From UHGV virus genome UHGV-2186022: a DNA stretch of 9,966 bases; one strand, 5' to 3'. This DNA is from a virus. The position numbers and the translations under genes were made by a program. Below, piece by piece: positions 1 through 9,966 of this stretch; position 1 is the stretch's first letter; every line of letters starts with the position of its first letter. Below the pieces are notes generated by a model. It was not told the DNA's origin. It was given only the letters and a program-made list of their open reading frames with translations, and made no database searches.

Positions 1-282
1 TTACCGCCGTAACCGCTCCGGCTTCTTCCAGTGGTACGTAATTTTTGCTTTTTCCCTGTACGTCTGCACGCGGCGACGGTAGGCCAGCATTTCAAGAACG
101 CGGATCCGTATGTTGCGCATATCCACATCATTAAGCTGGATACCATCACGGCGCATCACCTCAGCAACAACACGCGCATAATTTTCGGCTGTCACGCTGT
201 CCGGCTGCGTGGCCTGTTCGTCAGTCTGCTGGCTGATTCCACCAGCACGGCGGATTAATCCCAGTATTTCGGCTTCTGTCAT
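1..282 (-). CDS. hypothetical protein (93 aa)
   Basis: ATG at 282-280 with a GGGGG Shine-Dalgarno-like motif 5 nt upstream on the minus strand; in-frame TAA at 3-1. The longer 1..480 track ORF would read through the cos-like element, so the internal start is preferred. No family recognised. Confidence 0.5.
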   Translation of the reverse strand: MTEAEILGLIRRAGGISQQTDEQATQPDSVTAENYARVVAEVMRRDGIQLNDVDMRNIRIRVLEMLAYRRRVQTYREKAKITYHWKKPERLRR

Positions 283-315
283 TGTGCCCCCATCGCTCTG
301 ATAGTCTGGTGTCGT

Positions 316-395
316 CGGGTCCTTCCTGGAATTATGGCCCGTTACGGGGCGACGACCTCGCGCGTTTTCACTATTTATGAAAATTTTTCGGGATC
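316..395 (+). other. lambda-type cos site, copy A (cosQ-side flank, cosN, start of cosB)
   Basis: Plus strand 341-395 reads GTTACG GGGCGACGACCT CGCGCGTTTTCACTATTTATGAAAATTTTTCGGG. This matches the recalled lambda right-end/left-end junction (GTTACG + GGGCGGCGACCTCGCGGGTTTTCGCTATTTATGAAAATTTTCCGG) with one mismatch in the 12-nt cohesive-end sequence (347-358). 316-324 CGGGTCCTT matches the lambda right-end ACGGGTCCTTTCCGG. Confidence 0.7.
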
Positions 396-494
396 CATGT
401 CCGGTTTCTCTGCAAGTTAACCATATGAAAAATATAAAAACATGCTTTCCATGAACCGGACATGCGCAAAAAACAGACACTAAAACCGGACATC
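396..494. repeat. three copies of a 12-bp motif CATGTCCGGTTT in the cosB position of cos A (candidate small-terminase binding sites)
   Basis: 396-407 CATGTCCGGTTT (forward); 453-464 GAACCGGACATG and 483-494 AAACCGGACATC (both reverse, 11/12 match). An A-tract-rich segment (408-452) lies between copies 1 and 2. Layout resembles lambda cosB (R sites plus IHF site) but the motif differs from the lambda CGTTTCC core. Confidence 0.45.
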
Positions 495-561: not shown

Positions 562-996
562 TTACTGTTCTGTATCGGCTGATTGCTCCATGCTGGCACG
601 GCGAACGCTTACGGCATGACGCCACCCAGCCAGAAAGCCAGCCATTTTATTTCGTGCCTTGCTCACATCTTCCGGTGAATAGCCGTAAATCTGCAAACCT
701 TCATCAAATCGATGTTCTGTTTCTTCACTGGAGTACTCGTCACGCTCAGATGAAAGCAGCCTGGCAAACATAATTTTTTCCAGCGCACTGGTTTCTACGT
801 GATATCTGATGGCCTCAAGACGGCTTTTACCTGAAGACCAAAGCAATGTATGCCCGATGTGATAACCGCCAGACTTTCCGCGATCCGCATTAAGATACGG
901 CATCCCCTGTTTGGTCCATGCGCGAATAGTGGTTCTGTTAACCTTGAAATGTTCAGCTATTTCCTGCTGACTTACAAAACAAGCTTTATCAATCAT
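562..996 (-). CDS. Nu1-like small terminase subunit-like DNA-binding protein (144 aa)
   Basis: ATG at 996-994 with AAGG 8 nt upstream; TAA at 564-562. N-terminus VSQQEIAEHFKVNRTTIRAWTKQGMPY aligns by eye with lambda Nu1 KKQLADIFGASIRTIQNWQEQGMPV (winged HTH, GMP motif) followed by a GGKG-like G-rich loop. Shorter than Nu1 (181 aa). Sits between two cos copies. Confidence 0.55.
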   Translation of the reverse strand: MIDKACFVSQQEIAEHFKVNRTTIRAWTKQGMPYLNADRGKSGGYHIGHTLLWSSGKSRLEAIRYHVETSALEKIMFARLLSSERDEYSSEETEHRFDEGLQIYGYSPEDVSKARNKMAGFLAGWRHAVSVRRASMEQSADTEQ

Positions 997-1063
997 AATG
1001 TTACCTTAACTGCATGGTTAAATATTAATCAAGTGGTGGTGGTGTCACCTTCACGGAAAAACG

Positions 1064-1128
1064 TCATAAATAGCGAAAACCCACGAGGTCGCCGCCCCGT
1101 AACGGGTCCATATGCCGGAAAGGACCCG
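1064..1128 (-). other. lambda-type cos site, copy B (cosQ-like, cosN identical to lambda, truncated cosB)
   Basis: Minus strand reads ACGGGTCCTTTCCGGCATATGGACCCGTTACG GGGCGGCGACCT CGTGGGTTTTCGCTATTTATGA. The 12-mer at 1097-1086 is identical to the lambda cohesive end; first 15 nt match the lambda right end. About 85 percent identical to copy A over roughly 65 bp, in inverted orientation. Confidence 0.7.
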
Positions 1129-1129
1129 T

Positions 1130-1152
1130 AAAAAAAGCCGGATTTCTCCGGC
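1130..1152 (-). terminator. rho-independent terminator of the head operon
   Basis: On the minus strand, hairpin GCCGGAGAAATCCGGC (1152-1137) followed by TTTTTTT (1136-1130), 7 nt after the TGA of the 137-aa gene. Confidence 0.7.
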
Positions 1153-1158
1153 CTTATG

Positions 1159-1572
1159 TCAGATGGTTTTCAGTATGCGATCGACGTCGCCTTCATCGCC
1201 CTGGTTTCTGCCGTCGTATGCCATGCCGGGTGATACGGCTTTCGGGCTGTGCATGTCCATAAAGTTTTCAAAGGCTGCGGTAAGCTCCGGCGCAACCTTT
1301 GGGCGCTCCTGCTCTATGGTCATGTTCAGGATTTCACGAGCATTATCGACGCTAATACATGGCACGTTTGCCATTGCACGTAACAGCGGCTGATAGTCGT
1401 TATGTTCATGAAGCGCCATAATCGCATCAGCGCGCGGCTTGTCCTGCTCTTCCAGTTTGTTGAGTTGATATACGGCCTCGTAGGTTGATAAACCTCTGTC
1501 AGCCATTGCCCGCGCTTCTGCTTTAAATTTACTCGCCAGCGGTAGCGCCATGATGCTTTCATTCGTTGCCAT
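1159..1572 (-). CDS. hypothetical protein (137 aa), last gene of the head operon
   Basis: ATG at 1572-1570 with AGCAGGGGAAACG upstream (SD GGGG); TGA at 1161-1159; 12-bp gap after the D-like gene. No family recognised; position after the capsid genes suggests a head-assembly or packaging accessory role (inference only). Confidence 0.6.
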   Translation of the reverse strand: MATNESIMALPLASKFKAEARAMADRGLSTYEAVYQLNKLEEQDKPRADAIMALHEHNDYQPLLRAMANVPCISVDNAREILNMTIEQERPKVAPELTAAFENFMDMHSPKAVSPGMAYDGRNQGDEGDVDRILKTI

Positions 1573-1584
1573 CGTTTCCCCTGC

Positions 1585-1920
1585 TTATCGCGCCAGCGGC
1601 TGAACGGATACGCCAGAACCCGCAAAGGCGGCGCATTTTTTCGCGTCAGTGTCGGCGCTCTCAGGCCAGTTTACGGCGGCGATATTAAATATCCCCGTCT
1701 TGTAACACTGTGCTGATTTCTGCTTTGACGTGTCCACGGGGTACGAGGTCAGATAAACAGCCTTCCCAGATTCCTGACCATCCCACGGCTTAAACTCGCC
1801 ATTGTCCGCCAGCATCAGCGGGGTAAATTCCTGAATAACGCCAGCATCAGCGGCAAAATGTACCAGCGTCGTGGATACCTGCTGACTGCCTGCAAATAAC
1901 TCAATGTATGGAGTGTCCAT
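1585..1920 (-). CDS. head decoration protein, lambda gpD-like (111 aa)
   Basis: ATG at 1920-1918 with GGGGGA SD; TAA at 1587-1585. By-eye alignment to lambda gpD: TPLML, WDG, YK(T/S)G(I/T)F, WPE(S/A)A and C-terminal KK..AFAG(S/T)..S(V/I) shared. Confidence 0.8.
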   Translation of the reverse strand: MDTPYIELFAGSQQVSTTLVHFAADAGVIQEFTPLMLADNGEFKPWDGQESGKAVYLTSYPVDTSKQKSAQCYKTGIFNIAAVNWPESADTDAKKCAAFAGSGVSVQPLAR

Positions 1921-1931
1921 AGAATCCCCCG

Positions 1932-2987
1932 TTAAGCAATTTTGACGGTAACAAATTTGCGAATATCTGCCGGAACCGGCTGCGGTGCGCTGTGCGTCTG
2001 CACGTACTCAATCGCCGGATCGCCGTCCTCAATCCAGTTTTTCGGGTAGTACATGTTTTGCGTTGCGCCTGTTCTTACCGCTTCCTGATCCATAATCGCA
2101 CCATAGGCCACCAGCCCTTTGTTGTTGGTGTTGCCCAGGACCAGCAAATCAGGATCAAGGAAATATTTTTCTGTGCCGTCGCTGTCAGTGTATTTGCCGG
2201 AATAGACGATAAGGGCCAGATCACCAAGATAGCCTTTAAAGCTCACCACTTCGCCCAGGTTTTTACATGCCAGCTCTGCGGCGGATTCTGAACCACGGGA
2301 GAGATCGTACAGTTCACGGAATTTTTTAAAGCTGCGTAACATGCGCCATACATCAACGCCCATAATCATGACGTTTGCGGGGCAACCTGCCTGATCTGCG
2401 TATAGCTCAATGTCATAGATTGGGTCGTGTATGTCTTTGTCCTGCTCTGACCATTTTTTACCGTCGGCCTGCTCTATGATGTTTTTTTCCGGTATCTTCC
2501 AGTCGATTTCATAGCGCTCTATGCCTTCGCCCTCAATGATGTTTTTTCCGGTCGTTATCGCATTCACCGCCAGCCATTCCACGCGCGCTTTAATGGCGTT
2601 TATCTGGCGGCGCATGTTGCCAGTAATCAGGCGCATACGGCGGTAGGTAGGGTCGTTAAGCTGTGCCGGATCTTCTCCAGCCATGCGCATTATTGTTTTT
2701 AATGGATCGATTTCGTGTTTTGGCTTCATGTAGCCAGGGCGAATAATGCTGGTTTCGTACCCTTTATCGCGCTGAACCTGGCTACCAACCATAGGCGAAC
2801 AAAACGCCGACATAGTGACTTCTTCAATATCCAGGTTATCTAACATGATGTCCTGTGTGTTGAATGTCGCCACGTTCGGGAAAAACAGCGTGGTAAACAG
2901 AGGGCTGAATTTAAAATCCGCAATATCCCCGCGATTCAGGTACATGAAAAGCTGGTTAGTGTTAAGTGCCGTTGCTTTGCCTGCCAT
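1932..2987 (-). CDS. major capsid protein, lambda gpE-like (351 aa)
   Basis: ATG at 2987-2985 with GGGGG SD; TAA at 1934-1932. By-eye alignment to lambda gpE across the length: FKFSPLF vs FKFDPLF, PGYMKPKHEIDP vs PGYVKPKHEVNP, EDPAQLNDPTYRRMRLI vs EDPQNLADPAYRRRRII, WSEQDK vs WSKRDK, VSFKGYLGDLALIVYSG vs VSYKGMYGDVAIVVYSG, LVLGNT, YPKNW..GDPA. Confidence 0.9.
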   Translation of the reverse strand: MAGKATALNTNQLFMYLNRGDIADFKFSPLFTTLFFPNVATFNTQDIMLDNLDIEEVTMSAFCSPMVGSQVQRDKGYETSIIRPGYMKPKHEIDPLKTIMRMAGEDPAQLNDPTYRRMRLITGNMRRQINAIKARVEWLAVNAITTGKNIIEGEGIERYEIDWKIPEKNIIEQADGKKWSEQDKDIHDPIYDIELYADQAGCPANVMIMGVDVWRMLRSFKKFRELYDLSRGSESAAELACKNLGEVVSFKGYLGDLALIVYSGKYTDSDGTEKYFLDPDLLVLGNTNNKGLVAYGAIMDQEAVRTGATQNMYYPKNWIEDGDPAIEYVQTHSAPQPVPADIRKFVTVKIA

Positions 2988-3193
2988 TATTCACCCCCAT
3001 AATTTTTATGCATCCCAAGCGCCGCAAGTAAATAAGAGCGTACAAGTGAACCTATCGACGGCTCCGGCGTCATCAGCGGATCCAGTCCAGCCGCCACGCC
3101 AGCCTCATAGTTTTTTTTGTGGCGCTGCTTGAGCACCTCCACGATTTCGGGGCTTATGTACACCGAAACACCGCCTTTTTTCTCTTCAGCCAT
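2987..3193 (-). CDS. hypothetical small protein (68 aa), first gene of the head operon
   Basis: ATG at 3193-3191 with AAGAGGA 10 nt upstream; TAA overlaps the capsid ATG by one base (TAATG), implying translational coupling. N-terminus GGVSVYISPEIVEVLKQ is weakly reminiscent of an RHH beta-strand plus helix; not a firm call. Confidence 0.6.
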   Translation of the reverse strand: MAEEKKGGVSVYISPEIVEVLKQRHKKNYEAGVAAGLDPLMTPEPSIGSLVRSYLLAALGMHKNYGGE

Positions 3194-3228
3194 AGTAAGA
3201 AATTCCTCTTCGACTTAAAAAATCATAA

Positions 3229-3278
3229 CTGGATGTTCATCCAGCTCTGATTATAATCATGATTGCATTTTGTGCAAT
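3229..3278 (-). promoter_or_regulatory. candidate sigma70 promoter and operators of the head operon
   Basis: Minus-strand -10 TATAAT (rc of 3250-3255) inside a perfect 12-bp palindrome TGATTATAATCA (3248-3259). Weak -35 TTGCAC (rc of 3272-3277), 16-bp spacer. Dyad ATTGCA-N5-TGCAAT (3262-3278) overlaps the -35. Second dyad CTGGATG-TT-CATCCAG (3229-3244) lies at the predicted transcription start. Confidence 0.45.
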
Positions 3279-3354
3279 GATATTGAGTTGTGTTGCAAAT
3301 TATGAAATGATGATCCCGATCATGTGTGTCAGTGCACCAAAAAGCCTCATATGC

Positions 3355-3395
3355 AAAAGCCCGATAAGCCACCTCTGACCTTATCGGGCTTTTTT
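3355..3395. terminator. strong hairpin, likely plus-strand (possibly bidirectional) terminator
   Basis: Perfect 11-bp stem AGCCCGATAAG (3358-3368) and CTTATCGGGCT (3380-3390), 11-nt loop, then TTTTT (3391-3395) on plus; preceded by AAAA so a weaker minus-strand terminator is also possible. No plus-strand ORF upstream. Confidence 0.5.
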
Positions 3396-3504
3396 ATCTG
3401 CCTGCAAAGATGTCGAACGAAAATTAACCACAACCATCATCTTTTTTGCATCAAAACAATTAAAAACAATAAATTACGCTCATGATGATGATGACGATAA
3501 AATC

Positions 3505-3570
3505 ACAAAAATGCGCTTTTTTCCGCGCCTCCCGCCCCGTGTTCAGGCCCACCCCGCCAGGAGGACCCGT
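3505..3570 (-). other. degenerate third cos-like copy (copy C)
   Basis: Minus strand reads ACGGGTCCTCCTGGCGGGGTGGGCCTGAACACGGGGCGGGAGGCGCGG, alignable to copy B (ACGGGTCCTTTCCGG...GTTACGGGGCGGCGACCTCG) at roughly 70 percent. The cosN-equivalent 12-mer is degraded. Confidence 0.4.
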
Positions 3571-3592
3571 AAAAAAGCCGGATTGCTCCAGC
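3571..3592 (-). terminator. rho-independent terminator of the SSB-like operon
   Basis: Minus-strand hairpin GCTGGAGCAATCCGGC (3592-3577, one G-T wobble) followed by TTTTTT (3576-3571), 16 nt after the TAA of the SSB-like gene. Near-identical to the 1130-1152 terminator. Confidence 0.65.
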
Positions 3593-3608
3593 TTCTGTCA
3601 CTCGTCGC

Positions 3609-3977
3609 TTAAAACGGTATGTTATCCCCGTACGGATCATCATTCCCCGCCTGTTGTTTTGCCCTGTTCAGCGCGTCAGTAGCCTGGCCCTGTTGACCTT
3701 TTTTGCCGCCCAGTCGCGCCGTTCGCGCACTGATTACACTGTCTGCGATAACCTGCCAGCCCTGCCGCGTTTCTCCGTTCTGCCCAGTCCACTGGCTGAT
3801 CTGCATGTTACCCGCCACGCTCAGGAGTTCACCCTTGCGGTGCCTTTCCAGTGCTTCGGCCTGGCTGCACGGAAGGGGGGCCGCCATACGCGCCAGCGTC
3901 ATCGGTGTGCCCTTGCTGGTCTGTTTTACCTGCGGGTCGTCCACCAGCCGCCCGTAAGCTGCTATCTGTGCTGTCAT
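3609..3977 (-). CDS. short SSB-like protein (122 aa) with C-terminal ..DNIPF tail
   Basis: ATG at 3977-3975 with GGAGAGG SD; TAA at 3611-3609. N-terminus [25 protein letters not shown] resembles E. coli SSB [41 protein letters not shown] resembles TRKWTDQSGQDRYTTEV; C-terminus [11 protein letters not shown] resembles the SSB acidic tip DFDDDIPF. The middle of the OB fold appears shortened. Confidence 0.6.
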   Translation of the reverse strand: [122 protein letters not shown]

Positions 3978-4506: not shown

Positions 4507-6321
4507 TTAATTTTTGCTGTCGTCATTTGTGACCGATGCACATGATGGCATCCAGTCTTCTGAATCCTCTGTCAGTGTCACATTTGAACGCAAACCGTGC
4601 TTCGTTTTCCGTTTTATATACTCCCTGCCATATTCCGCCATTGCCCCCGGCATATCTTTACCGAAGCGCGTCAGTGTTACAGGTTTACCGAATCCGTGTG
4701 CCCTCATATATGCCAGATAGGCGTGATAAAGATACCTGCGCGGACTGAACGGAATAATTTCGGCATTACCCACTAACAGACCATCACACATTACCGACGA
4801 CATGAGATAGCCACAGAAGTCCACCAGCGAATCGCCCTCGCGTTTTATCACCAGAGCTTCTTCTGATTTCTGCTGCTCATACAGCAGGCGTTTAGCTTCG
4901 TCCTGGTCAGAAAAACGAGTAAGCAGATGGCGAATCACAACCGCCAGCTCTCCTTCTATTTTTTCTGCCAGCATGGGGTCGCGCTCGTTCTCCGGTACAA
5001 CCTCCGAAAAATTGAATATCACCCGACGACGTGAGATCCCCCCGCTGCGGTCACTGAATGACATGGCGTTATTGTTCACCGCCAGCACGACCGCCTGAAT
5101 GCGTGTTGAGTAGGGGGCTTTATGCTTCGGGTCGATTGCCACCTTGTCACCGCCTGTAATGGCCTTAATTCCTGCGCCATCACCAGCGTAGCGGGTCATA
5201 TCCGGCATGATAATCAGCGAAAAGCCAACCACTAACGCGCGTTCCCTTGCATCTTCCAGCGCCTTCATGCTTGCCGATACTGTGTTGGCCTTACCCGCCA
5301 GCATGGTGCAAATCTCCGCCATCACGCTTTTACCACTTCCCCCTGGACCTGTTACCTCAATGAATAACTGCCAGTCGTACCGGTTCGCCAGCACCATGAA
5401 TAATGCAGCCAGCACGCGATCCGTCTTGCGGTCATTCTCTGCCACCGAGCAGCGTAACCACTTCCAGAAATTCGGCGCATGTGTTGCCAGCGTTTCCCCC
5501 TCTGCTGGTGGGCTGAAAGGTAATTCACTGGCAATTAACAACCAGTCGTTTTTGTTATGCTCCCGAAAATTACCTGTTCTGGTATCAAATACCCCGTTAC
5601 TGAATCCAATCAGGTTACGGGCTGTATTCCCCATTACAGGCAAACTTAACTTCATGGTATCGACCGCCGATTTAATGGCGTTCTGCGAATAGCTGATCTC
5701 CGCATCAATGAAAATCTGCGCCATAGCACGCTGTAACTCTTTATCCTGAATCGGCTCCCATACAACGCCGTTGTAATGGTGAACAGTGTCAGAGTCGGCA
5801 TGAATCGCCAGTTCACCGCCATAATGTGCCAGGAGAACTTCGCCGCGCTGGCTTGCTCCCATCTGGTTAAGCGCCAGTGGTGCGGCGCTGTCTTCTGTTT
5901 TTTTCTTAACAGGAAGCTGAATCACCAGACCATCAGAAAGATTCTGGCGCTCACGGGCCAGATATTCGCGCCAGTTCTGCACCTCCTGGCCGTGCATACC
6001 CTCAGGATAAAAATTTGCATCCTGTACGCCTGCCGCCGCCAGCTTCTGACCAATCGCCTTTATCATTACTGGCGCAAGATATCCGGCCCTGAATATGCGC
6101 ACGGATTTTCTGCCTTCCGGCACAATTTGCAGCTTATCCAGTTCGGATAACTGCTGCTCCCCAAGCCACACAGGAGGCTCATTATCTCCGGCCATACGCG
6201 CGTCATGTTCCTGCCATTGTTTTGCGTGTGACCAGGCATCACTACCCGCAAAAATAATGACTTCTGTTTCTTTGTGTTTTATGCCGCGTGACTGCTGTTT
6301 TACGTTCGGTGCCAGTTTCAT
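4507..6321 (-). CDS. primase-helicase, P4-alpha/D5 family C-terminal domain type (604 aa)
   Basis: ATG at 6321-6319 with AGGGGG SD; TAA at 4509-4507. Walker A GPGGSGKS within EVTGPGGSGKSVMAEICTMLAGK, and the overall layout is typical of satellite and plasmid primase-helicase proteins. Confidence 0.85.
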   Translation of the reverse strand: MKLAPNVKQQSRGIKHKETEVIIFAGSDAWSHAKQWQEHDARMAGDNEPPVWLGEQQLSELDKLQIVPEGRKSVRIFRAGYLAPVMIKAIGQKLAAAGVQDANFYPEGMHGQEVQNWREYLARERQNLSDGLVIQLPVKKKTEDSAAPLALNQMGASQRGEVLLAHYGGELAIHADSDTVHHYNGVVWEPIQDKELQRAMAQIFIDAEISYSQNAIKSAVDTMKLSLPVMGNTARNLIGFSNGVFDTRTGNFREHNKNDWLLIASELPFSPPAEGETLATHAPNFWKWLRCSVAENDRKTDRVLAALFMVLANRYDWQLFIEVTGPGGSGKSVMAEICTMLAGKANTVSASMKALEDARERALVVGFSLIIMPDMTRYAGDGAGIKAITGGDKVAIDPKHKAPYSTRIQAVVLAVNNNAMSFSDRSGGISRRRVIFNFSEVVPENERDPMLAEKIEGELAVVIRHLLTRFSDQDEAKRLLYEQQKSEEALVIKREGDSLVDFCGYLMSSVMCDGLLVGNAEIIPFSPRRYLYHAYLAYMRAHGFGKPVTLTRFGKDMPGAMAEYGREYIKRKTKHGLRSNVTLTEDSEDWMPSCASVTNDDSKN

Positions 6322-6838: not shown

Positions 6839-7067
6839 GGTGCGCCCCTTGAATATCTGCGGTAAGAATTTTGCCTGCCTCATTCAGCGCCATATCAGCA
6901 CTAAGTTGCATAACAGCCAGTGAGTGAGGAACGAAAGCCCCGGCATATTCTGTTTCGCTGGTGGCGTGCTTATGCGCCTTGTCTGCGATAACAGAAATAT
7001 CAATCAGCGCGTGCATCAGCGTTTTGATGGCTTCGGCGGCTGCGTCCGGACGGGTGTTATTGCACAT
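6831..7067 (-). CDS. hypothetical protein (78 aa)
   Basis: ATG at 7067-7065 with AGGGGG SD; TGA at 6833-6831. No family recognised. Confidence 0.55.
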   Translation of the reverse strand: MCNNTRPDAAAEAIKTLMHALIDISVIADKAHKHATSETEYAGAFVPHSLAVMQLSADMALNEAGKILTADIQGAHHA

Positions 7068-7263
7068 GGCGTACCCCCTGACGAATACGGGCAGCGAATA
7101 CCATCACGCAGCCATCAGGAGATTGCTGACGCGCTTCCTGTTCGCTGGTGGCCTCAATGGTAATCACGCGCGGTTGTGCCGTGCTCAGGGCGATAAAACG
7201 CCAGATGTATTTATTCAGGTTGTACGAGTCCCGCCCTTGCGGGTGTGTGGTATGATTTCTCAT
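7057..7263 (-). CDS. hypothetical protein (68 aa), first gene of the operon ending in the primase
   Basis: ATG at 7263-7261 with GAGG 6 nt upstream; TAA at 7059-7057. It is the 3-prime part of the 316-aa track ORF; only this part has a credible start. Confidence 0.5.
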   Translation of the reverse strand: MRNHTTHPQGRDSYNLNKYIWRFIALSTAQPRVITIEATSEQEARQQSPDGCVMVFAARIRQGVRHVQ

Positions 7264-7360
7264 AGCTGCCTCGATACTTTCGCTATCGTTGGTGGTTAGA
7301 AGCCCGTTGGTGTTGGTAGCACCTGCGGGCTTTGTCTTTTCATCGATTACCTCAACAAAG

Positions 7361-7441
7361 GTGTCAGCCACTATACTAGTAACAGGTGTCAGCCACGTCA
7401 ATAGTGTTTTTCCATTTTCTTGTGTGTATACTGTCAGCCAC
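7361..7441. promoter_or_regulatory. triple direct-repeat operator in the divergent promoter region
   Basis: GTGTCAGCCAC at 7361-7371 and 7386-7396, TGTCAGCCAC at 7432-7441. TATACT hexamers abut copy 1 (7373-7378) and copy 3 (7426-7431). Lies between divergent starts at 7263 (minus) and 7463 (plus). Confidence 0.5.
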
Positions 7442-7462
7442 CTAATAACAAGGAAATCAGAT

Positions 7463-7642
7463 ATGGCAACGAAAGCAGTTAATGGAAAATCCAAAAAACT
7501 TGAGGCACGAGTCCCCCATGCAATAGCTGACGCTGTAGAAAATTTAAAGGAAGAAGGCGAAAGCACTGGGCAATTTATCGTTTCGGCACTTGAAGGCGAG
7601 ATCAAACGCCGCCAGCGCCGCAAGGCCAAAGAGCAGGAGTAA
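7463..7642 (+). CDS. small ribbon-helix-helix-like DNA-binding protein (59 aa), candidate regulator
   Basis: ATG at 7463 with AAGGAAA SD; TAA at 7640-7642. KLEARVPHAIADAVENLKEEGESTGQFIVSALEGEIKRR fits an RHH pattern (beta-strand LEARVP, helix A, G-x-S/T loop, helix B) with a basic tail. Fold assignment is by eye. Confidence 0.55.
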   Translation: MATKAVNGKSKKLEARVPHAIADAVENLKEEGESTGQFIVSALEGEIKRRQRRKAKEQE

Positions 7643-7684
7643 CCATCACCAGCGCCGTGGTGTAAGGTATTACGGCGCATTGCT

Positions 7685-7873
7685 ATGCAGGACAACACAA
7701 TGACCGATAAAGAATTGACCAAAACATTATCACCGGCACGGAAAAGACGGCGCAGAAAGATAGAGCATGAATCAGAAAGATTCGCGCCATGTGCTTTTGC
7801 CCTTGAGCAATTCCTTAAAGAGTACAGGGAAAAGCGCTCATTGCAGGTATGGCAACGAACTGAACCAGACTGA
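7685..7873 (+). CDS. hypothetical basic protein (62 aa; alternative ATG at 7700)
   Basis: ORF with RKRRRRK basic stretch; weak SD for either start; TGA at 7871-7873; followed by a terminator. Confidence 0.35.
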   Translation: MQDNTMTDKELTKTLSPARKRRRRKIEHESERFAPCAFALEQFLKEYREKRSLQVWQRTEPD

Positions 7874-7968
7874 TTGCATTGCCCACCAGCCTGATAGCGG
7901 CTATCATCCCCGTGCTTATGTTTGGGATCATATACACATAAGGCGCAGCGGGTTAATTGTTCAGAAAG

Positions 7969-7995
7969 GCGGCTCCATATCGGGGCCGCTTTTTT
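7969..7995 (+). terminator. rho-independent terminator between convergent genes
   Basis: Stem GCGGCTCC (7969-7976) and GGGGCCGC (7982-7989), 5-nt loop, TTTTTT (7990-7995). The alpA stop is at 8022 on the other strand. Confidence 0.6.
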
Positions 7996-8021
7996 CGTGT
8001 TTGTCATATCTGTGATACCCG

Positions 8022-8228
8022 TTAAGCAGCCGTTCCGCGTGCTTCCTGTTCGCGTTCTTTCTGCCAGGCCAACACATCATCCTCATACCATCCGCGACGG
8101 CGTAAACCAACGCGAAAACCCTGCGGAAATTCTCCGGCGTTGATCATGCTTTGCAGCGTGCTGTCTGCCTTGATGTGGATAATTTTTTTTACTTCCTGGC
8201 GAAAGATAATTTTTCTGATTGCTTCCAT
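8022..8228 (-). CDS. alpA: AlpA-family phage transcriptional regulator (68 aa)
   Basis: ATG at 8228-8226 with AAGG 9 nt upstream; TAA at 8024-8022. IIFRQEVKKIIHIKADSTLQSMINAGEFPQGFRVGLRRRGWYEDDVLAWQKER fits the AlpA/Vis HTH pattern (EV..STL...I..G.FP....G.R..GW.E..V..W). Position next to a P4-type integrase is typical. Confidence 0.8.
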   Translation of the reverse strand: MEAIRKIIFRQEVKKIIHIKADSTLQSMINAGEFPQGFRVGLRRRGWYEDDVLAWQKEREQEARGTAA

Positions 8229-8724: not shown

Positions 8725-9966
8725 CTACACGGCTCGGATACCCCTTTTACCACTGGCGAGGGTTACGCCCGTCGCCGCAGCCTCGACAAATTCGCCCCAC
8801 CAGCGCATCAGCACGATGCGTTTTTCTATGTAGTTGCTCCGGTTGTATGCCCGTCTAACTTCGTTGGTGTCGACGTGGGCAAGTGCCGCCTCTATTACGT
8901 CCGGCTCGAATCCTTCCTCGTTCGCTGCTGTGCTGAATATGGCGCGTAATCCATGAGACACCAGCACGCCAGCGAATCCCATACGCCGCAATGCTGCGTT
9001 AGCTGTCTGGCTGTTCATCGGCTGCTGTGGGTCTTTCAGACTTGGGAAAACGTAATTGCGGTGGTGGCTGATTGGTTTCATGGCCTCCAGCACCGCCATA
9101 GCCTGACCGGAAAGCGGGATAACGTGATCCCTGCGCATCTTCATGCGTCCGGCAGGTATCGTCCATTGCTTCGCGTCCAGGTTGATTTCATCCCACCGCG
9201 TTGATGACGCTTCGGCGGGACGGGTTACGGTCAGTAACTGCCATTCAATCAGTAATCTGGTCTGCCGTTCTGTTGCCGATACTGATAAAGCCTGCATAAG
9301 CTCGGGCAGCTGTTCGGGGCGGATTGTTGGCATATGTTTTTTTACAGGTGAGGGAAACGCCTTACGCACATTCATAGCCGGATTGGCATCAATCAGCCCA
9401 CTGTTGGCGGCGTAATCCATTACCTCATTAACGCGCTGTAAAACCCGTTTGAGTGTTTCCAGGTTGCCGCGCTCCTTGATGGGGGTAAGCACCTCAACGA
9501 ACCTGCGAGCGGTCAGGGTGTCTATTGGGGTGTTGCCGATGAACGGGAATACATATTTATCCAGCGATCGCCAGATGTCTTTAATCGTGTTGGGGGCCAG
9601 ATTCTGGCTGATTTTCACCTGGTACCATGCCGCCGCCACATTTTCGAACGTGTTCCCTTGTCTTCGGGCCTCTGCCTCTCGTTTTTTCTTCTCATGGCCC
9701 TGCGGGTCAGTTCCGGCACTGATTAACGCTCTGTACTCGCTACGGCGTTTTCTGGCATCAGCCAGGGAAACATCATCAAGCGATCCAAAACTCAGCAATA
9801 TTCTTTTTTTGTCCGATGGCCGGTAGTAGGAAAATCGCCAGAGTTTTGATCCGGACGGTTTGACCAGGAGAAAAAGCCCTCCGCCGTCCTGTAGGGTGTA
9901 TTCCTTTTCCGCTGGTCTGGCTGCTTTGATCTGCACCGTGGTTAATGGGGGTGTTTTTCTCGCCAT
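8725..9966 (-). CDS. int: tyrosine site-specific integrase, P4 type (413 aa)
   Basis: ATG at 9966-9964 (window edge); TAG at 8727-8725. N-terminus LTTVQIKAARPAEKEYTLQDGGGLFLLVKPSGSKLWRFSYY is the characteristic P4-integrase arm-binding region. C-terminal catalytic elements present: TVTRPAEA (Arg), HGLRAIFSTAA (H-x-x-R), HVDTNEVRRAYNRSNY (Tyr region). Confidence 0.95.
   Translation of the reverse strand: MARKTPPLTTVQIKAARPAEKEYTLQDGGGLFLLVKPSGSKLWRFSYYRPSDKKRILLSFGSLDDVSLADARKRRSEYRALISAGTDPQGHEKKKREAEARRQGNTFENVAAAWYQVKISQNLAPNTIKDIWRSLDKYVFPFIGNTPIDTLTARRFVEVLTPIKERGNLETLKRVLQRVNEVMDYAANSGLIDANPAMNVRKAFPSPVKKHMPTIRPEQLPELMQALSVSATERQTRLLIEWQLLTVTRPAEASSTRWDEINLDAKQWTIPAGRMKMRRDHVIPLSGQAMAVLEAMKPISHHRNYVFPSLKDPQQPMNSQTANAALRRMGFAGVLVSHGLRAIFSTAANEEGFEPDVIEAALAHVDTNEVRRAYNRSNYIEKRIVLMRWWGEFVEAAATGVTLASGKRGIRAV

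Follow-up and report, generated by a model that had tools for sequence, protein, structure and literature searches.

A phage-inducible chromosomal island of the EcCICFT073 family carries lambda-type coat and decoration genes and a predicted Nu3-type scaffold gene

The window analyzed here is a stretch of 9,966 nucleotides (nt), at its full length, of the UHGV virus genome UHGV-2186022. We assign the element that it carries, on the basis of gene order and protein similarity, to the EcCICFT073 family of classical Gram-negative phage-inducible chromosomal islands (PICIs). The subject of this report is the capsid operon of this element, which consists of four minus-strand genes for proteins of 68, 351, 111, and 137 amino acids (aa). 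These are the homologs of genes c1498, c1499, c1500, and c1501 of EcCICFT073, respectively. An earlier description of the same DNA, made from its letters alone and referred to below as the sequence-only reading, had proposed a four-gene operon, and the open reading frames (ORFs) bear this out. From the first gene to the last, the operon comprises:

2987..3193, minus strand: 68-aa protein, first operon gene (c1498 homolog), matching phrog_3255 (unknown function) at 8.5e-46
1932..2987, minus strand: lambda gpE-type major capsid protein, 351 aa (c1499 homolog), with Phage_cap_E, PHROG, and PDB matches
1585..1920, minus strand: lambda gpD-type head decoration protein, 111 aa (c1500 homolog), with HDPD, phrog_49, and PDB matches
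1159..1572, minus strand: predicted shortened Nu3-type scaffold, 137 aa (c1501 homolog), with two repeats of about 40 aa and the C-terminal motif TAAFENFMDMHSPKAV

The 351-aa protein (E) matched the Pfam family Phage_cap_E over profile positions 16-328 of 329 (8.8e-50; 170 bits against a cut-off of 22.9) and the PHROG major head protein (1e-106). In the PDB, it matched 3BQW (3e-228), which is an existing crystal structure for the capsid protein, and lambda gpE (7VI9, 1.2e-81). The 111-aa protein (D) matched Pfam HDPD along its full length (1e-17; 64.7 bits against a cut-off of 29.1), phrog_49 (4e-27), and solved decoration proteins of the gpD/SHP type (1TD0/1TD3 at 6e-13 and lambda gpD at 1e-9). 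The sequence-only reading had called these two proteins homologs of gpE and gpD, and the profile and structure matches agree. E is 45% identical to the E of a lambdoid prophage of strain CFT073, and D is about 43% identical to the helper-type D. The order of the two genes, E followed by D, is the reverse of the order C/Nu3-D-E in the CFT073 lambdoid prophage, as had been remarked for lambda. This order is retained in 16/16 Escherichia coli copies of the operon and in PICIs from four other genera.

The operon is tightly packed. The stop codon of the 68-aa gene overlaps the start of E (TAATG), and the gaps between E and D and between D and the 137-aa gene are 11-12 nt long and contain G-rich Shine-Dalgarno sequences. 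The four genes are thus predicted to be translationally coupled. Upstream of the operon, between it and a region holding a single-stranded DNA-binding protein (SSB) gene and a cos-like segment, a strong hairpin with an 11-bp stem (AGCCCGATAAG...CTTATCGGGCT) followed by TTT at 3358..3390 (minus strand) looks like an intrinsic terminator. If it acts as one, then the operon would have its own promoter or would need antitermination. This hairpin was read from the sequence; its loop exceeds the limit of the terminator scan, and it is therefore unlisted there. The promoter and terminator scan gave counts that were not above those for shuffled sequence, and it supports no promoter call. A second stem-loop is located at 3227-3246, shortly before the start of the 68-aa gene.

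The assignment of the 137-aa protein as a shortened Nu3-type scaffold is new here and follows from several profile and pairwise matches. The protein matched phrog_1999 at 6.7e-62 and the C-terminus of phrog_53, annotated as head maturation protease, at 1.5e-9. In a BLASTP search, it aligned with residues 416-493 of a 501-aa lambdoid S49 protease of the gpC type (36% identity, E-value 7e-10), and a second, weaker repeat match to the same protease was present. The Nu3-equivalent C-terminal 201 aa of the lambdoid gpC protease in turn matched phrog_1999 from end to end (7.6e-70). A free-standing relative of 195 aa (P0066) matched both phrog_1999 and phrog_8399, a head scaffolding protein. The PICI protein has two of the repeats, as opposed to three in this phage-type relative. 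The C-terminal motif reads FENFMDMHSPKAV in the PICI scaffold and FEHFMANHSPAAV in the helper-type gpC/Nu3, and a motif in common is compatible with the two proteins acting on related shells.

No S49 peptidase domain was detected in the 137-aa protein by Pfam. An AlphaFold2 (AF2) model of the protein is all-helical with a flexible tail, which is compatible with, but does not go beyond, the predicted role as an internal scaffold; a Foldseek search of this model against the PDB gave no significant match. The family is very narrow, with eight cluster representatives among 1.84 billion proteins. Many RefSeq copies carry the NCBI name "phage head-tail connector protein"; we rejected this name, as no NCBIfam model matches the protein.

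The sequence-only reading had named both small proteins of the operon as candidates for scaffold or size-determination factors. For the 137-aa protein, this suggestion gained support in the form of the Nu3-type assignment, whereas the 68-aa protein stayed without a family that would inform on function. No match to the 68-aa protein was found in Pfam, NCBIfam, PADLOC, or the PDB sequences. Its AF2 model has an extended N-terminus and two helices at moderate confidence (predicted local distance difference test score of 75), and Foldseek searches of the model against the PDB and viral models returned nothing significant. Lambda gpW also has 68 aa, but the possibility that the PICI protein is a diverged gpW, FI, or FII was rejected, as neither BLASTP similarity nor a PDB sequence match was found. 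A ribbon-helix-helix fold, guessed from the sequence pattern, was likewise unsupported.

The 68-aa protein was found only in E. coli and Salmonella. Its gene occurs as two alleles with about 68% protein identity and a synonymous divergence (dS) of about 0.5-0.8, whereas identity in the neighboring capsid gene remains about 94%. This difference suggests a recombination boundary where the operon begins. The allele present in the window is also found in O157:H7 and at three further loci (L017, L019, and L020). In tblastn searches of the 68-aa and 137-aa proteins against 50,697 phage records, one of the two had a single weak match and the other had none; the two proteins are essentially PICI-specific. 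None of the four operon proteins matched a PADLOC defense model.

The sequence-only reading had, by eye, found no clean match of the gene set to a satellite family. The comparison with CFT073 led to a different conclusion: the element is classified here as a member of the EcCICFT073 family, and neither it nor its capsid genes are new. The genes of the CFT073 element follow the identical order, running from the integrase through a helix-turn-helix (HTH) regulator, small genes, the primase, SSB, and the 68-aa, capsid, decoration, 137-aa, and 144-aa genes to the 93-aa gene. Relative to the CFT073 copies, the 144-aa protein is identical at 144/144 positions, D at 97%, E at 94%, and the 137-aa protein at 90%. 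The published supplement gives the same sizes for the four products, with 68 aa for c1498, 351 aa for the c1499 capsid protein, 111 aa for c1500, and 137 aa for c1501 (PMC6092414). The integrase is located at one end of the window, every assigned gene lies on the minus strand, and the capsid-like gene is downstream of the replication module, as in PICIs of the EcCICFT073 type. The span from the last gene to the integrase is 9,966 bp, within the small PICI size class (about 10-15 kb). Outside of the capsid operon, the assigned genes are:

1..282, minus strand: 93-aa conserved protein, phrog_1561 at 3e-55, final gene before the host junction in all relatives
562..996, minus strand: RppA (redirecting phage packaging), 144 aa, with 144/144 residues identical to the product encoded at c1503 in CFT073
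3609..3977, minus strand: SSB-like protein (PICI backbone), Pfam SSB at 1.1e-8, with 99% identity to its counterpart in the PICI of Nissle 1917
4507..6321, minus strand: D5/P4-type primase-helicase, Pfam D5_N, DUF5906, and Pox_D5, phrog_864 DNA primase at 5e-193
8022..8228, minus strand: AlpA-like regulator, 68-aa HTH protein, Pfam Phage_AlpA along the full length at 17.6 bits against a 21-bit cut-off
8725..9966, minus strand: P4-type tyrosine integrase, Pfam Phage_integrase, Phage_int_M, and Arm-DNA-bind_3

At its alpA position, the PICI of Nissle 1917 has a gene 100% identical to the one at 8022-8228. The integrase is 98% identical to that of the Nissle PICI, which adjoins tRNA-Pro/yejM. The element is a mosaic within its family: its integrase, AlpA-like protein, and SSB are 98-100% identical to those of Nissle, whereas rppA is of the CFT073 type, and the primase is only about 56% identical to the Nissle and CFT073 copies, yet 74% identical to that of a Kluyvera PICI (L013). 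A PerC-family regulator gene, which separates SSB from the 68-aa gene in several copies, including those of CFT073, O157:H7, and O26, is missing from the window (3194-3608), as it is from Nissle 1917. The window also contains a 316-aa ORF at 7057-8007 (minus strand) with no family match. In this region, the annotation of the relatives shows several small genes, Icd-like pseudogenes, and a plus-strand YlcI/YnfO gene; the ORF may be long only by chance or may represent a fusion. No Rfam family matched the window.

The head and tail proteins of a CFT073 lambdoid prophage were used as tblastn queries against the window. No match was found for the portal, the gpC protease, the large terminase subunit (TerL), W, FI, FII, Z, U, V, or H. 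Nor did the Pfam and PHROG searches detect a portal, protease, or TerL in the window, in agreement with the sequence-only reading, which had also recognized a helper-dependent satellite whose genes include an integrase of the P4 type, an AlpA-like regulator, and a primase; the domain matches listed above support this description. Since the element encodes neither portal, protease, and TerL nor tails, it must obtain these from a helper. The missing head genes could have been located immediately beyond the left edge of the window. However, in the five best relatives among complete E. coli genomes (AST198, Nissle 1917, CFT073, EcPF5, and ETEC1732), the 93-aa gene is followed directly by host genes, namely yejO, phoQ, or a tqsA fragment. 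As the elements of the relatives end at this point, we conclude that no further head genes lie to the left. At the right end, the relatives have the integrase beside tRNA-Pro/yejM or another attachment site.

What the sequence-only reading had taken for a TerS-like factor is not a TerS but RppA, a protein that binds the small terminase subunit (TerS) of the helper. Apart from its identity with the CFT073 protein, the product of c1503, the 144-aa protein matched the crystal structure of RppC (6HLK, 5e-31). Through its binding to the helper TerS, RppA diverts the terminase to the cos site of the PICI, and the interference with lambda is fully explained by RppA (PMC6739421). Three cos-like segments were found in the window:

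1060..1150, minus strand: cos1, a cosQ-like sequence and an exact lambda cosN cohesive end (GGGCGGCGACCT, 1086-1097), between the capsid operon and rpp
3406..3575, minus strand: second cos-like segment, upstream of the capsid operon; its counterpart in lambdoid phages of the Stx/VT1 type, at about 90% identity, is the non-coding stretch that separates Rz from terS
315..493, plus strand: third cos-like segment, in the opposite orientation to the first two; it contains GGGCGACGACCT (347-358) and is 92.7% identical to the sequence that immediately precedes Nu1 in PhiR12 phages

The first of these is nearly identical to cos1 of CFT073, and the arrangement of cos and rpp is as published (PMC9026076). 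The literature on EcCICFT073 discusses two cos sites only. Cos sites from several lambdoid lineages could widen the range of helpers. Helper-dependent induction, packaging, and high-frequency transfer have been demonstrated experimentally for EcCICFT073 only; we take its packaging route to apply to the window element because rppA and cos1 are nearly identical in the two. A lambdoid helper would induce the island, which would then excise and replicate with its own primase, steps that have been shown for EcCICFT073 and are expected here from the near-identity. The helper TerS, bound by RppA, would direct the helper terminase to cut the PICI at cos1, directly downstream of the capsid operon. Concatemers of the PICI would then be packaged into full-size capsids of the helper type, with the portal, protease, TerL, and tails all supplied by the helper.

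To assess selection on the operon, we calculated pairwise ratios of nonsynonymous to synonymous divergence (dN/dS) against the window copy; the set includes one copy with only 65% DNA identity. For E, the ratios were 0.11-0.16, leaving aside one near-identical pair with 12 differences; the E value for AST198 (0.80) was discarded as unreliable because the AST198 copy has an internal stop. The ratios for D were 0.03-0.12 among close copies. The 137-aa scaffold gene had values of 0.17-0.37 and the 68-aa gene of 0.15-0.39, with 0.16-0.44 for the 93-aa gene. The order of the four genes and their reading frames were retained in the copy at 65% DNA identity. Among the 16 copies, E was intact in 15/16, D in 16/16, and the scaffold gene in 15/16, and the 68-aa ORF was full-length in 15/16. 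Frameshifted relics of E and D in related strains were thus not the pattern encountered, and the low ratios indicate that all four operon genes are under purifying selection. In AST198, both the PICI capsid gene (9930-10985 of locus L001) and the integrase (17410-18651 of the same locus) have premature stops; this copy is decaying. Strain CM2 has lost the 137-aa scaffold gene and kept the 68-aa gene, E, and D.

Among 5,426 complete E. coli genomes, about 590-630 contained the module. A scan of species-representative genomes yielded only four loci, too few to describe a distribution, and these were used as comparisons from outside the genus. E followed by D was also found in free-standing PICIs of Kluyvera and Superficieibacter and in helper-embedded PICIs of E. 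coli, Cedecea, and Kosakonia. In these PICIs from outside the lineage, D is followed by a gene for an HTH protein of about 128 aa, and neither the 68-aa gene nor a Nu3-like gene is present. The E-D pair is thus the conserved core, and the genes for the scaffold and the 68-aa protein are restricted to the EcCICFT073 lineage. The helper-embedded PICIs of E. coli 24AR0376, Cedecea, and Kosakonia are inserted in a prophage major capsid gene (E) and have their own E-D pair. With Cedecea and Kosakonia, such insertions, published for E. coli, are seen in further genera.

Capsid genes are common in satellites of this kind. A major capsid gene was reported in 21/29 reference Gram-negative PICIs (Mageeney et al.), and in the SatelliteFinder study a capsid-like "capsid morphogenesis" gene is a core component of PICIs, typical of those of enterobacteria. 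In the same study, the capsid genes of PICIs and of capsid-forming PICIs (cf-PICIs) form separate clades. A cf-PICI such as the prototype EcCIEDL933 resembles the window element in being a satellite with int, an alpA-type gene, a primase, and its own major capsid protein of the HK97 fold. However, cf-PICIs encode a portal, a protease, head-tail connectors, HNH, TerS, and TerL; they make their own small capsids and steal only tails. No portal, protease, adaptor or connector, TerL, or HNH gene was found in the window by Pfam, PHROG, or tblastn, and the sole match to a protease family is the non-catalytic C-terminal scaffold region. The window element is therefore not a cf-PICI, as it has no portal, protease, connectors, or TerL. 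With P4-like satellites, it has only the types of the integrase, AlpA-like protein, and primase in common (PMC6092414). Sid, Psu, Delta, and Ash/epsilon are not among the Pfam and PHROG families matched by the scanned ORFs, and because Sid, Psu, and Delta are missing from these scans, the element is not P4-like either.

EcCICFT073 itself, the prototype of the classical Gram-negative PICIs (Fillol-Salom et al. 2018, 2019), has the same gene order from int to the 93-aa gene, and its cos1 and rppA are nearly or fully identical to those of the window. Its integrase is of a different type (27% identity), the primase and the 68-aa protein, the latter a different allele, are 56% and 68% identical, respectively, and it has the PerC gene that the window element does not; these differences are the result of mosaic exchange inside one family. 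The helper-embedded PICIs of the 11capE type (Mageeney et al. 2023) have the same E-D pair downstream of a primase and SSB. They are located in the late genes of the helper, have the HTH protein gene of about 128 aa after D, and are without the 68-aa and Nu3-type genes, whereas the window element is of the free-standing, chromosomally integrated type. The Staphylococcus island SaPIbov5 is, like the window element, a cos-packaged satellite with a diverged homolog of the major capsid protein of its helper. This homolog, Ccm, occupies the pentamers and converts the prolate heads of phi12 to small T=4 heads, with the phage strongly blocked. The window element has decoration and scaffold homologs, which have not been reported for SaPIbov5. 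Compared with the C/Nu3-D-E region of lambda, the scaffold C-terminal domain, decoration protein, and coat are homologous (identities of 36-45%). However, the window has the mirrored order E, D, Nu3-like, its scaffold is a shortened, free-standing protein without the protease domain, and B (the portal), W, FI, and FII are absent.

The reading of the operon toward which we lean, with confidence no better than evenly divided, is that it is a morphogenesis operon of the EcCICFT073 family whose shell proteins supplement or substitute those of the helper, and do so redundantly with the helpers that have been used experimentally. The operon encodes a lambda-type shell kit without portal and protease, comprising a predicted Nu3-type scaffold, a gpE-type coat, a gpD-type cement, and a small 68-aa partner. 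These shell proteins would assemble on the helper portal, either alone or mixed with the E, D, and Nu3 of the helper, into lambda-like shells. Such shells would accept the packaging redirected by Rpp and thereby supplement or replace the shell proteins of the helper. Natural selection for the kit might come, for example, from helpers whose shell genes are defective, interrupted, or poorly matched.

Several published results weigh against this reading, and they also run counter to the implication of the sequence-only reading that the element makes and requires a shell of its own. The deletion of c1499 or c1500 left the transfer by a resident prophage and the interference with lambda unchanged (Fillol-Salom et al. 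2018). An island with cat in place of c1499 was transferred well by lambda and phi80 (Fillol-Salom et al.), and the EcCICFT073 DNA packaged with lambda was all phage-sized. A contribution of these shell proteins to particles has never been demonstrated. With identities to the helper-type proteins of about 45% for E and about 43% for D, co-assembly is not assured, and the related PICI lineages that keep E-D without the scaffold and 68-aa genes imply that the pair can be retained without a PICI scaffold. As to capsid size, the induction of CFT073 yielded no band of PICI monomers, a later description by the authors of this work has the EcCICFT073 family packaged in large capsids, and the review by Dokland presents EcCICFT073 as having a capsid homolog, yet full-size capsids when lambda is the inducing phage. 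We found no later paper that gives the genes c1498-c1501 a function. The absence of a deletion phenotype could be due to redundancy of the shell contribution with the laboratory helpers, and this is the explanation that we propose. Another explanation, that a c1501::tetA background had broken the scaffold gene in the published tests without phenotype, was considered and rejected, as the primers place the cassette right after the c1501 stop codon.

The same results bear on the alternatives. The shell proteins might be antiphage factors that lower the yield of lambdoid phages other than those used in the published tests, either by co-assembling with them as decoys or dominant-negative subunits or by sequestering their portal or scaffold. 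Interference is a hallmark of PICIs, the Ccm of SaPIbov5 strongly lowers phi12 titers, and genes that are under purifying selection yet dispensable for transfer, with E and D forming a lineage apart from those of phages, would fit such a role. On the other hand, lambda interference was not relieved in the c1499 and c1500 deletions and is accounted for by RppA, there is no report of a phage that the four proteins block, and the PADLOC models were silent; we regard this alternative as unlikely. A redirection of capsid size, in which natural helpers would form small capsids (for example, T=4) that hold one or two PICI genomes, with the 68-aa protein or the shortened scaffold as the size determinant, appears distinctly unlikely to us. 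It is the role assumed in the SatelliteFinder study for the capsid morphogenesis component of enterobacterial PICIs, Ccm works in this way, and the same mode is suspected for PmCI172, which has a capsid homolog and makes small capsids; the two repeats of the PICI scaffold, against three in P0066, would also agree with it. However, phage-sized DNA with lambda, the missing monomer band, the later description of the family as packaged in large capsids, and the efficient transfer of the island without c1499 all argue against it.

The view that a captured phage head module merely persists on the island as non-functional genes could draw on the lack of a phenotype for c1499 and c1500, the premature stop in E of AST198, and the loss of the 137-aa gene from CM2. 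We give it almost no credence: dN/dS is well below 1 in all four genes, even at saturated synonymous divergence, and the order, frames, and intact copies reported above are not those of remnants. A recent passive capture is also contradicted by the gene order, which mirrors that of the phage. A further possibility, which we also consider distinctly unlikely, is a "half capsid-forming" PICI that, with its natural helpers, makes its own scaffolded and decorated lambda-like shell, possibly of another size, and takes the portal, protease, terminase, and tails from the helper. The two-repeat scaffold or the 68-aa protein would then serve as size determinant or portal adaptor. This mode could have been missed so far because only lambda, phi80, one CFT073 prophage, and single-gene deletions were used. 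If true, it would place the element as an intermediate between the classical PICIs and the cf-PICIs.

The operon is the late module of one of the commonest satellites of E. coli, present in about a tenth of the complete genomes, including O157:H7, CFT073, and Nissle 1917. There is an acknowledged gap between its maintenance by selection as a coat, cement, and scaffold set and its location on an element that, in the laboratory, travels in helper capsids, apparently without a need for it. With the 137-aa protein assigned as Nu3-type, the module resembles a coherent kit for building shells and not an isolated capsid homolog, and the assignment sharpens the question of whether these satellites ever build or modify capsids.

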